Virus record (IMG/VR): IMGVR_UViG_2721755711_000002
From: a virus
Taxonomy: Duplodnaviria > Heunggongvirae > Uroviricota > Caudoviricetes
Direction: 5' to 3' (one strand)
DNA length: 64,000 nucleotides
The notes below the pieces were generated by a model that made no database searches, was not told the origin of the DNA, and saw only the letters and a program-made list of their open reading frames with translations. The first letter of the stretch is position 1; each line of letters opens with the position of its first letter. The position numbers and the translations under genes were made by a program. Shown here in pieces: positions 16,099-16,763 of this stretch.

Positions 16099-16162
16099 AT
16101 CGCGTACATTTCACGTAAATATGATATTTTGCCGATTTTGTACGCGATGGCAAAGTAAGCAA

Positions 16163-16188
16163 ACCCCGCCGCCGAGCGGGTTTTTTGT
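16163..16188 (+). terminator. tR'-like rho-independent terminator downstream of the Q-like gene
   Basis: Stem CCCGC/GCGGG followed by TTTTTT. Confidence 0.55.
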
Positions 16189-16290
16189 TGGCTTAACAGG
16201 TTATAATGTACAGTGCGAAACTGCCTGTTCAGCAGAATCATTTTGTTTGTAGTGGAGTTCACAAGTCGTCATTATCAGGCAAAGAGATTT

Positions 16291-16692
16291 ATGGTGTTAA
16301 AGTATCAGCCGTCTGTTCGTTCTGTTTTAATGTGTGATTTTCGGGGAATGGTTGTTCCGGAAATAGTCAAGGTCAGGCCAGTGGTAGTCGTGTCCAGAAA
16401 CAGACACAACAATCAATTGGTAACAGTGGTACCAATAAGCACTACTGAACCGATCCCTCGCAGAGATTGCCATCATGAGTTATCAGAAAACCCCATTCCT
16501 GGTAATGAGCATATTACTTGTTGGGTAAAATGTGACATGTTGATGACGGTTTCATTGAGCCGACTGGATCGCATAAAAACCAGAACCTGGGAGGGGCGAA
16601 ATTATATTGTTCCTATGATTGCGGAAGATGAGTTTGAGAATATTAAACGGGCGGTATTGCACGGGATAGGGATGGCTTATCTGTATCGATAA
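16291..16692 (+). CDS. MazF/PemK-like (Kid-fold) putative toxin, orphan
   Basis: 133-aa ORF; CDFRG..PEIVKVRPVVVVS...LVTVVPISTT matches the MazF/PemK N-terminal pattern; no adjacent antitoxin ORF. Confidence 0.4.
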   Translation: MVLKYQPSVRSVLMCDFRGMVVPEIVKVRPVVVVSRNRHNNQLVTVVPISTTEPIPRRDCHHELSENPIPGNEHITCWVKCDMLMTVSLSRLDRIKTRTWEGRNYIVPMIAEDEFENIKRAVLHGIGMAYLYR

Positions 16693-16763
16693 TCGAAAAC
16701 GATTATCGAATTCGATATGAATTTATATTGACACACATAGTGTGTTGACTGATACTGTCGCTG

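Follow-up and report, generated by a model that had tools for sequence, protein, structure and literature searches.

The 64,000-nucleotide (nt) stretch of the IMG/VR virus record IMGVR_UViG_2721755711_000002 (Caudoviricetes), referred to below as the window, carried a gene for a MazF/PemK-fold protein, and 70 nt 3′ of it began a gene for a structured small RNA of about 115 nt. The same RNA was found beside almost every intact relative of the toxin gene. It is very probably a genuine functional partner of the toxin. A functional pair is hard to doubt because the linkage was near-exceptionless, held in either gene order and extended over four classes of Proteobacteria and phages. With less assurance, we consider it probable that the RNA (16763-16878, + strand) acts as an antitoxin. 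Positions 16187-16880 are accordingly read, with the same reserve, as a two-part toxin/RNA-antitoxin cassette of about 0.7 kilobases (kb), a moron heading the late operon.

How solo MazF proteins are controlled has been noted as a question since at least 2009, and small RNAs were then suggested as one possible answer. Here, a solo MazF subfamily was tied to one conserved structured RNA. The subfamily held at least 578 loci in species-representative genomes and 73 more on IMG/VR viral contigs. The module of a MazF-fold toxin and a single-copy structured RNA is apparently both widespread and undescribed. Full-text literature searches covering YifN, RNA antitoxins of MazF, MazF proteins described as orphan or solitary, and strings of the RNA returned no description of the RNA or the module within the searchable library.

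The predicted toxin gene and its probable partner RNA

The toxin gene occupied positions 16291-16692 (+ strand) and encoded a protein of 133 amino acids (aa), a predicted endoribonuclease toxin. The start codon at 16291 was supported by the conservation of the N-terminus (P7, C15). In a profile search, residues 12-95 matched PF02452 (PemK_toxin) with 52.6 bits against a cut-off of 23.1. Further matches were obtained to phrog_15698, of unknown function, and to the MazF-like phrog_1936. An AlphaFold2 model built on 62 homologues reached a mean predicted local distance difference test (pLDDT) of 95.3 and a predicted template modelling score (pTM) of 0.88. Its Foldseek neighbours in the PDB were MazF-type throughout (best 50 of 79 at E <= 0.001), with a probability of 1.00 and target-normalised template modelling scores (TM-scores) of 0.68-0.83. 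They included MazF, MoxT, YdcE and mRNA interferases from Staphylococcus aureus, Bacillus subtilis, Mycobacterium tuberculosis and Escherichia coli. A PDB sequence search with the toxin gave no sequence-level match. Residues E24, R29 and S50 were invariant across the 62 homologues and aligned in hhalign to E24, R29 and T52 of E. coli MazF, which are the catalytic residues of that enzyme.

The first-pass annotation of this DNA had proposed a 133-aa MazF/PemK-like open reading frame (ORF) at 16291-16692, and both the ORF and its Kid/MazF fold were confirmed by the profile match, the invariant residues and the structure prediction. The MazF-type gene call itself is not new. The gene is already annotated and named 'type II toxin-antitoxin system PemK/MazF family toxin' by the RefSeq/NCBI pipeline. 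The JGI label for the subfamily was 'YifN (PemK superfamily)'. It formed a distinct subfamily with members of 127-143 aa from Enterobacter, Klebsiella, Xenorhabdus, Pseudomonas, Geobacter, Alcanivorax and other hosts, and PF02452 was present in 111 of 111 homologue clusters. The Shine-Dalgarno sequence of the toxin gene was poor and its promoter weak at best; a perfect TATAAT -10 hexamer without a good -35 element (16202-16207, + strand) is a possible candidate for the latter. A perfect 10-bp palindrome (TCGATAATCG, 4 nt, CGATTATCGA; 16686-16709) spanned the toxin stop codon 5′ of the RNA promoter and may serve as an operator or form a 3′-terminal hairpin in the toxin mRNA.

Apart from mechanical ORFs, no ORF of at least 30 aa adjoined the toxin gene on the same strand in the window. 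Clustering of the neighbour ORFs over 166 related loci yielded none conserved across the family. Only lineage-specific neighbours were grouped, together with mechanical ORFs that overlapped the RNA among close relatives. On Pseudomonas and Geobacter chromosomes, the toxin gene was monocistronic and lay between divergent or convergent neighbours. A protein antitoxin was rejected on the evidence of the window ORFs, the gene calls at distant loci and the clustering of neighbours. The earlier statement that no antitoxin ORF is adjacent was thus correct, and the term 'orphan' that went with it had to be dropped, as a conserved RNA partner was present in essentially every locus examined. The RNA gene had been overlooked in that annotation, though the region at 16.7-16.9 kb was named in the expression experiment it proposed.

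The block 3′ of the toxin gene was first read in the window, in Enterobacter (L008) and in Xenorhabdus (L011), each time with a sigma-70 promoter and an intrinsic terminator. Using blastn, the same block was also recovered in Massilia, Noviherbaspirillum, Brevundimonas, Vogesella, Paraburkholderia and others, where the preceding toxins were just 45-55% identical. A covariance model, R1, was built from 15 diverse copies of the RNA and matched positions 16761-16877 of the window with 125.7 bits (E = 1.8e-26). On the + strand, the RNA started with the short hairpin P1 (16766-16768 with 16773-16775), which was joined by the invariant linker GGGACUUGUGAGAC to the hairpin P2 (16786-16790 with 16796-16800), of variable length in the family. 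It was followed by the long hairpin P3 (16802-16811 with 16832-16841), which contained an internal loop and carried the invariant apical loop GAUGACAA (16820-16827), closed by GGY/RCC. The terminator hairpin (16846-16868) ended in the tail GUCGUUUUU, and the tail conserved in the family read CCUUUGUC(A/G)UUU.

In 76 distinct RNA sequences, paired cells amounted to 94.4%, compared with 31-55% in slid controls, and compensatory double changes were present at 25 of 28 pairs. The covariation score of 0.517 compared with 0.05-0.10 for slid controls, and the observed values were not reached in any of 500 shuffles; the alignment was fitted to the model, which somewhat favours the structure, and the margin was very large. 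RNAalifold on a plain MAFFT alignment independently regained P1 and P3, with 9 covarying pairs. Folded by itself, the window copy adopted the same helices (minimum free energy -43.9 kcal/mol, z = -3.92). The single-stranded segments were almost invariant across alpha-, beta-, gamma- and deltaproteobacteria. The length variation of P2 and the substitution pattern argued against a coding region. At locus L001 (8718-8915), a 65-aa 'hypothetical protein' annotated in RefSeq covered both terminators and the RNA's 3′ half; the covariation of the RNA makes it probable that this call is spurious.

No known RNA family was identified for 16763-16878. Scans of the window region and six distant loci against Rfam 15 with permissive E-values gave no match to the RNA body, and a weak isrK match (19.8 bits, cut-off 50) at 16850-16909 covered only the two terminators. 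Tandem repeats of the ToxI type were absent from the locus, the RNA being single-copy. The phage GenBank collection contained no match to the cassette or the RNA.

The RNA gene was preceded by a sigma-70 promoter, TTGACA-17 nt-GATACT (16728-16756, + strand), which matched the consensus at 10 of 12 positions. In a stack of 65 non-redundant upstream regions, less than 70% identical and aligned on the first P1 base, TTG was found at -38 to -36 and nATAnT at -15 to -10 relative to P1, with a 17-nt spacer between them. From this geometry, the RNA is predicted to start on a conserved G, at about 16763 in the window. The promoter signature was kept even where it fell inside the last toxin codons, which favours independent transcription of the RNA over its being a 3′ untranslated region.

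Linkage of toxin and RNA was examined with R1. One RNA copy on the toxin strand was detected at 140 of the 166 toxin loci, in most cases 0-112 nt past the stop codon, with sources in enterobacteria, Pseudomonas, Neisseria, Caulobacter, Geobacter and phage contigs. Over approximately 1 Mb searched, no comparable match was located away from a toxin gene. The remaining 26 loci consisted of 12 with a variant RNA upstream, 11 with a variant RNA downstream, two contig ends and one toxin pseudogene without RNA. The upstream variant (L077-L079, L083, L084, L086, L091, L092, L074, L145 and L152) lay about 70-190 nt before the start codon and had its own -10 element, P1 and P2, the loop GGCGAAGCAAGCUC and a terminator. 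Its toxins formed a sister subfamily of 40-47% identity, and its RNA ended in the tail CUUUGCUUUUU, with the terminator tail about 20 nt before the start codon. The downstream variant, missed by R1, had the same helix layout with the loop GAGAUUGCAAUCG and the tail GGGGCUUUGCUUUU. It was present on viral contigs (L153-L165) about 10-140 nt after the stop codon of distant toxin homologues. L135 was the only locus with enough flanking sequence but without the RNA. Its toxin homologue (3001-3366) was interrupted by several in-frame stops, no RNA followed downstream and the leader motif UUGUCAUCACC was kept.

Among 5426 E. coli genomes, the RNA was present in 36 and toxin plus RNA in 23, counts that are small and partly clonal; no toxin-only genome was among the matches listed. 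Two kinds of E. coli prophage locus carried the RNA without the toxin. At L014 (3000-3340), a clean deletion of the toxin ORF joined the equivalents of window positions ~16243 and ~16740 and left the RNA, and the TATAAT segment of 16202-16207 was kept as well. At L013 (2900-3120), the RNA alone was located directly after a P22-type antiterminator and its late promoter. In E. coli K-12, the yifN pseudogene (L168; NC_000913.3, 3959800-3960500, minus strand) carried a consensus promoter, TTGACA-17 nt-GATAAT, at its stop codon. It was followed by a short remnant resembling P1, the linker and the hairpin-terminator, with the P3 loop missing (R1 14.6 bits, E = 0.0018). The interval between yifN and ppiC may encode a small transcript that is not annotated.

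Pairing potential of the apical loop

The toxin leader in the window contained a site, GUCGUCAUUAUC (16265-16276, + strand; 26 to 15 nt before the start codon), that was complementary to the apical loop of the RNA. The match was a 9-nt run including G-U pairs (p about 0.05-0.075). The Enterobacter/Klebsiella-type leader site UUGUCAUCACC gave a perfect 11-nt match 25 nt before the start codon, with p <= 0.005 in most loci and <= 0.015 in all. The Neisseria-type match comprised 10 nt and lay 21 nt before the start codon. Between the Enterobacter-type and Neisseria-type pairings, one pair differed in a compensatory manner, from U-A to C-G. In several lineages, leader sites complementary to the loop were positioned 20-29 nt before the toxin start. 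General antisense pairing between the RNA and the toxin leader was rejected, with whole-RNA duplex energies no better than those of shuffled sequences and a loop-only test that was significant in a minority of lineages. Pairing of the loop with the coding positions +89 to +96 (PVVV codons) was frequent but uninformative, because repeated GUN valine codons with G-U pairs explain the match.

The apical loop was also complementary to the 3′ tail of the RNA itself (GACAAG with CUUUGUC). In the variant families, loop and tail shifted together, to GCAAG with CUUUGC. A pseudoknot between the two was 87% paired with almost no substitution covariation, and it is hypothesised solely from the matching one-base differences in the variant families. 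In the upstream-RNA subfamily, the RNA tail itself was the toxin leader, which may explain the tail-like leader motif in some downstream-RNA families. Pairing of the 5′ linker (CUUG) with the loop (CAAG) showed no covariation on inspection. MazF reportedly cuts 16S ribosomal RNA (rRNA) at ACA1500, which prompted a comparison of the loop with K-12 16S and 23S rRNA. As a mimic or complement of rRNA, the loop gave no signal beyond chance, and the conserved RNA segments had no significant similarity or complementarity to E. coli 16S/23S rRNA.

Proposed mode of action and rival readings

In a lysogen, the RNA would be produced in excess from its near-consensus promoter. Little toxin would be expected, because its promoter is at best weak and its ribosome-binding site poor, and this toxin would be kept neutralised. 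Neutralisation would more likely proceed by direct binding of the RNA to the toxin dimer, in the manner of type III toxin-antitoxin systems. The contact surface would be formed by the invariant single-stranded segments, above all the loop GAUGACAA. This loop includes ACA, the cleavage motif of E. coli MazF. The loop may in addition base-pair with a UGUCAUC-like sequence some 25 nt ahead of the toxin start in enterobacterial and Neisseria lineages, resembling type I control. Direct protein binding is more likely to be the universal mechanism and leader pairing a lineage-specific addition, since near-invariant single-stranded segments fit recognition of a protein surface better than pairing with a fast-diverging mRNA. 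The toxin would be freed when the supply of RNA is lost, for example because a superinfecting phage stops host transcription or because the prophage is lost. It would also be freed on induction, when polymerase modified by the late antiterminator Q would pass the terminator in front of the cassette and toxin mRNA would flood the cell. The modified polymerase would read on through the genes of both toxin and RNA and past the two terminators behind them, and the balance of toxin to RNA would shift. The RNA was seen without the toxin, the reverse was not among the matches listed and the sole RNA-less locus was a dead toxin, which fits the logic of addiction.

Type III systems and AbiF are among the closest known systems. 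Like ToxIN, CptIN and TenpIN, the pair combines a predicted endoribonuclease toxin with an adjoining non-coding RNA and an intrinsic terminator between or after them. The fold of ToxN is related to Kid/MazF. In ToxIN, the labile RNA is depleted when host transcription is lost and the toxin is freed. Type III systems reside on mobile elements and act in abortive infection, and the window cassette is on a prophage. The sister subfamily showed the type III order of RNA, terminator and toxin. The abiF RNA motif (RCd22) of a Clostridioides difficile prophage neutralises the AbiF toxin by direct RNA-protein binding, in cis and in trans, and loss of host transcription in superinfection depletes this labile RNA and frees the toxin. 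It shares with the present pair the combination of a prophage toxin with an adjoining structured RNA without repeats, and the RNA of AbiF was likewise first recognised as a conserved motif. However, the AbiF toxin family (Abi_2/AbiD/F, HEPN-like) and its RNA motif are unrelated to those described here, and its hosts are mainly Bacillota.

Several observations weigh against an RNA antitoxin system of this kind. The RNA differs from type III antitoxins in being a single-copy, multi-helix molecule of ~115 nt without an array of short tandem repeats and in lying usually downstream of the toxin with its own promoter, and the toxin belongs to PF02452 instead of the ToxN, CptN or TenpN families. PADLOC returned no model match for the toxin and no known defence system. 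The hhalign probability for the toxin against E. coli MazF was only 62%. Complementarity between loop and leader was absent in most lineages (median p 0.57; p <= 0.05 in 18% of loci), and duplexes of the whole RNA with the leader did not outscore shuffles (mean z = -0.36). Loci with the RNA alone resemble remnants of recombination or deletion and may not be selected orphan antitoxins; L014 was without the -35 element of the RNA promoter and the RNA of L013 had no promoter of its own. Finally, an IS21-family element at ~18.3 kb breaks the late operon and lysis region of the window, so that induction of this prophage may be defective.

Rival readings were weighed on the same data. It is very unlikely that the gene encodes a truly orphan type II-like MazF, silent behind the terminator and expressed by Q read-through only, with an unrelated small RNA or terminator beside it. 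The position directly after Q, with a late promoter, a terminator and late orientation, would suit such a gene, as would the failure to find an antitoxin ORF in the window or at the 166 loci. However, the RNA accompanied almost every intact toxin in either order, including those on Pseudomonas, Geobacter and Caulobacter chromosomes, its covariation was strong and its promoter was conserved; taken together, these make chance adjacency an insufficient explanation. A role of the RNA in cis, as a structure in either untranslated region (3′ or 5′), tuning the stability, termination or translation of the toxin mRNA rather than acting as a trans antitoxin, fits the many loci in which it starts only ~8 nt past the toxin stop codon. 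It also fits the sister subfamily, with the RNA in the 5′ leader of the toxin, and the complementarity of the loop to its own tail, both of which change together in variant families. We regard this as unlikely, because the sigma-70 promoter at a fixed distance across the family, even inside the toxin coding sequence, indicates independent transcription, and the RNA survived where the toxin was deleted. Cis and trans roles can also coexist.

The two genes might instead specify a working ribonucleoprotein and not a toxin-antitoxin pair. The protein would then act on the RNA by processing or stabilising it, or the invariant loop would guide the nuclease to a particular cellular or phage RNA. Near-invariance of the single-stranded segments across four classes of Proteobacteria would be expected of a fixed molecular partner, and obligate co-occurrence in either order would also suit this possibility. 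It is judged about as improbable as purely cis action. The catalytic triad typical of free-standing MazF toxins was kept, and no significant similarity or complementarity linked the conserved segments to E. coli rRNA. Moreover, E. coli loci with the RNA alone exist, toxin-only loci were not among the matches listed and the RNA-less locus was a pseudogenised toxin, an asymmetry predicted by a toxin-antitoxin pair but not by a mutually dependent ribonucleoprotein. Slightly more doubtful still is a programmable or targeted ribonucleoprotein, that is, a new kind of RNA-assisted MazF nuclease. Here the loop GAUGACAAGCC would alternate between its own 3′ tail and UGUCAU-type sites and would steer or gate the cutting of selected RNAs, such as phage or host transcripts in late lytic growth.

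Type II and type I systems also share some features with the pair and differ from it in others. With MazEF and PemIK (Kid-Kis), the toxin shares the fold and the catalytic residues. In contrast to these, a MazE/PemI-type antitoxin gene was absent from the window and none was conserved in the family, and the toxin has a C-terminal extension (133 aa compared with ~111). Type I nuclease toxins under small RNA control are RalR/RalA of the rac prophage and SymE/SymR, which are prophage-borne or chromosomal. The pair resembles them in the complementarity of the RNA loop to the toxin leader near the ribosome-binding region in enterobacterial and Neisseria lineages. Yet this complementarity comprised 9-11 nt and was absent in most lineages, the RNA was not antisense-encoded, and its strong structure and invariance are not typical of type I antitoxins. 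Type I toxins are usually small hydrophobic peptides, with the nucleases SymE and RalR as exceptions, and the protein here is soluble, MazF-folded and 133 aa long. If the RNA is the antitoxin, MazF would be added to the RNA-controlled toxins. The architecture would be new, with a single-copy multi-helix RNA transcribed from its own promoter, and 'type II' labels in prophage and genome annotations would need correction.

Late-region context of the cassette

In the window, the cassette followed the early-right region of a lambdoid prophage, with a DUF968 gene (13988-15046) and a RusA gene (15047-15412). The next gene encoded a late antiterminator Q of the phage 82/QuuD type (15409-16098, + strand; PF06323 E = 1.5e-83, phrog_304 E = 3e-105), as anticipated by the first-pass annotation. 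Its start was placed at 15409 because the same gene in L001 was annotated with that length. An AT-rich segment followed Q; its probable late promoter pR′, TTGCAA-17 nt-TACATT (16082-16110, + strand), matched the consensus at 8 of 12 positions, which is under the scan threshold. On the same strand 3′ of it, the -10-like sequence TAAATATGAT could serve as a pause element; both assignments derive from sequence. The promoter geometry was the same in L014 (TTGCAA, 17 nt, TATATT) with a different spacer sequence. The intrinsic terminator tR′ (CCCGCCGCCGAGCGGG with a T-run; 16165-16186, + strand) consisted of a hairpin at 16165-16180 and a T-run to 16186, in agreement with the terminator claimed previously at 16163-16188. 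The segment 16102-16186 recurred with 85-94% identity in many E. coli genomes lacking the toxin, which suggests a standard unit moving together with Q genes of this type. Behind the cassette, a second intrinsic terminator (16889-16909, + strand) probably belongs to the prophage backbone and not to the cassette, since 16899-16950 was common to many cassette-less E. coli genomes.

The cassette was located between Q with its promoter and terminator and the lysis genes, in late orientation, in the window and in L001, L002 and L008-L011. Its place 3′ of the terminator and its orientation make Q-driven read-through on induction plausible. In the prophages examined, the toxin gene always lay just after a late-gene activator. 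This was PF06323 Q in the window, PF03589 in Enterobacter, PF06530 in Xenorhabdus and Mor in a Mu-like element. As the activator varied, the cassette is mobile and not tied to one phage backbone. That it heads the late operon behind antiterminators of three unrelated families suggests that release of the toxin is linked to induction or superinfection. The protein may act as an induction-coupled toxin or an abortive-infection effector.

The late order in the window was Q, terminator, cassette, an AraC-like gene, a putative holin and an IS21 insertion. In full-length E. coli relatives, it was Q, toxin, two hypothetical ORFs, a DNA methylase, tRNAs, further cargo and lysis genes. In related prophages, the RNA came next after the toxin, with a hypothetical gene, the DNA methylase and the tRNAs behind it; the stx position falls after these tRNAs and before the lysis genes. 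The first-pass annotation had placed the toxin gene in an Stx-equivalent slot. The shared late transcript and the position as first gene after Q support part of this comparison, but the cassette lay ~2.5 kb upstream of the stx position. It resembles stx and other lambdoid late-operon morons between Q and lysis in its placement, late orientation and exposure to Q read-through. It differs from them in directly adjoining the terminator, ahead of the methylase/tRNA block in front of the stx position, and in having its own promoter or promoters and its own terminator.

Between the cassette and the putative holin ORF (17956-18249), an AraC-family regulator was encoded at 17032-17778. Its nearest relatives were YdeO and GadX (NCBIfam PRK09940, 1.2e-43, under the cut-off), and it resembles acid-stress-type regulators of some pathogenic E. 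coli prophages. The IS21-family element in the late region comprised istA (18380-19921) and istB (19933-20682). From ~20.8 kb on, long ORFs mostly ran along the minus strand, suggestive of another element or an inverted block. A 110-aa ORF on the minus strand (13200-13532), opposite to the early-right genes, contained the internal repeat NVDNLRREIDSRFNS / NVDNLRREVDSRFNS.

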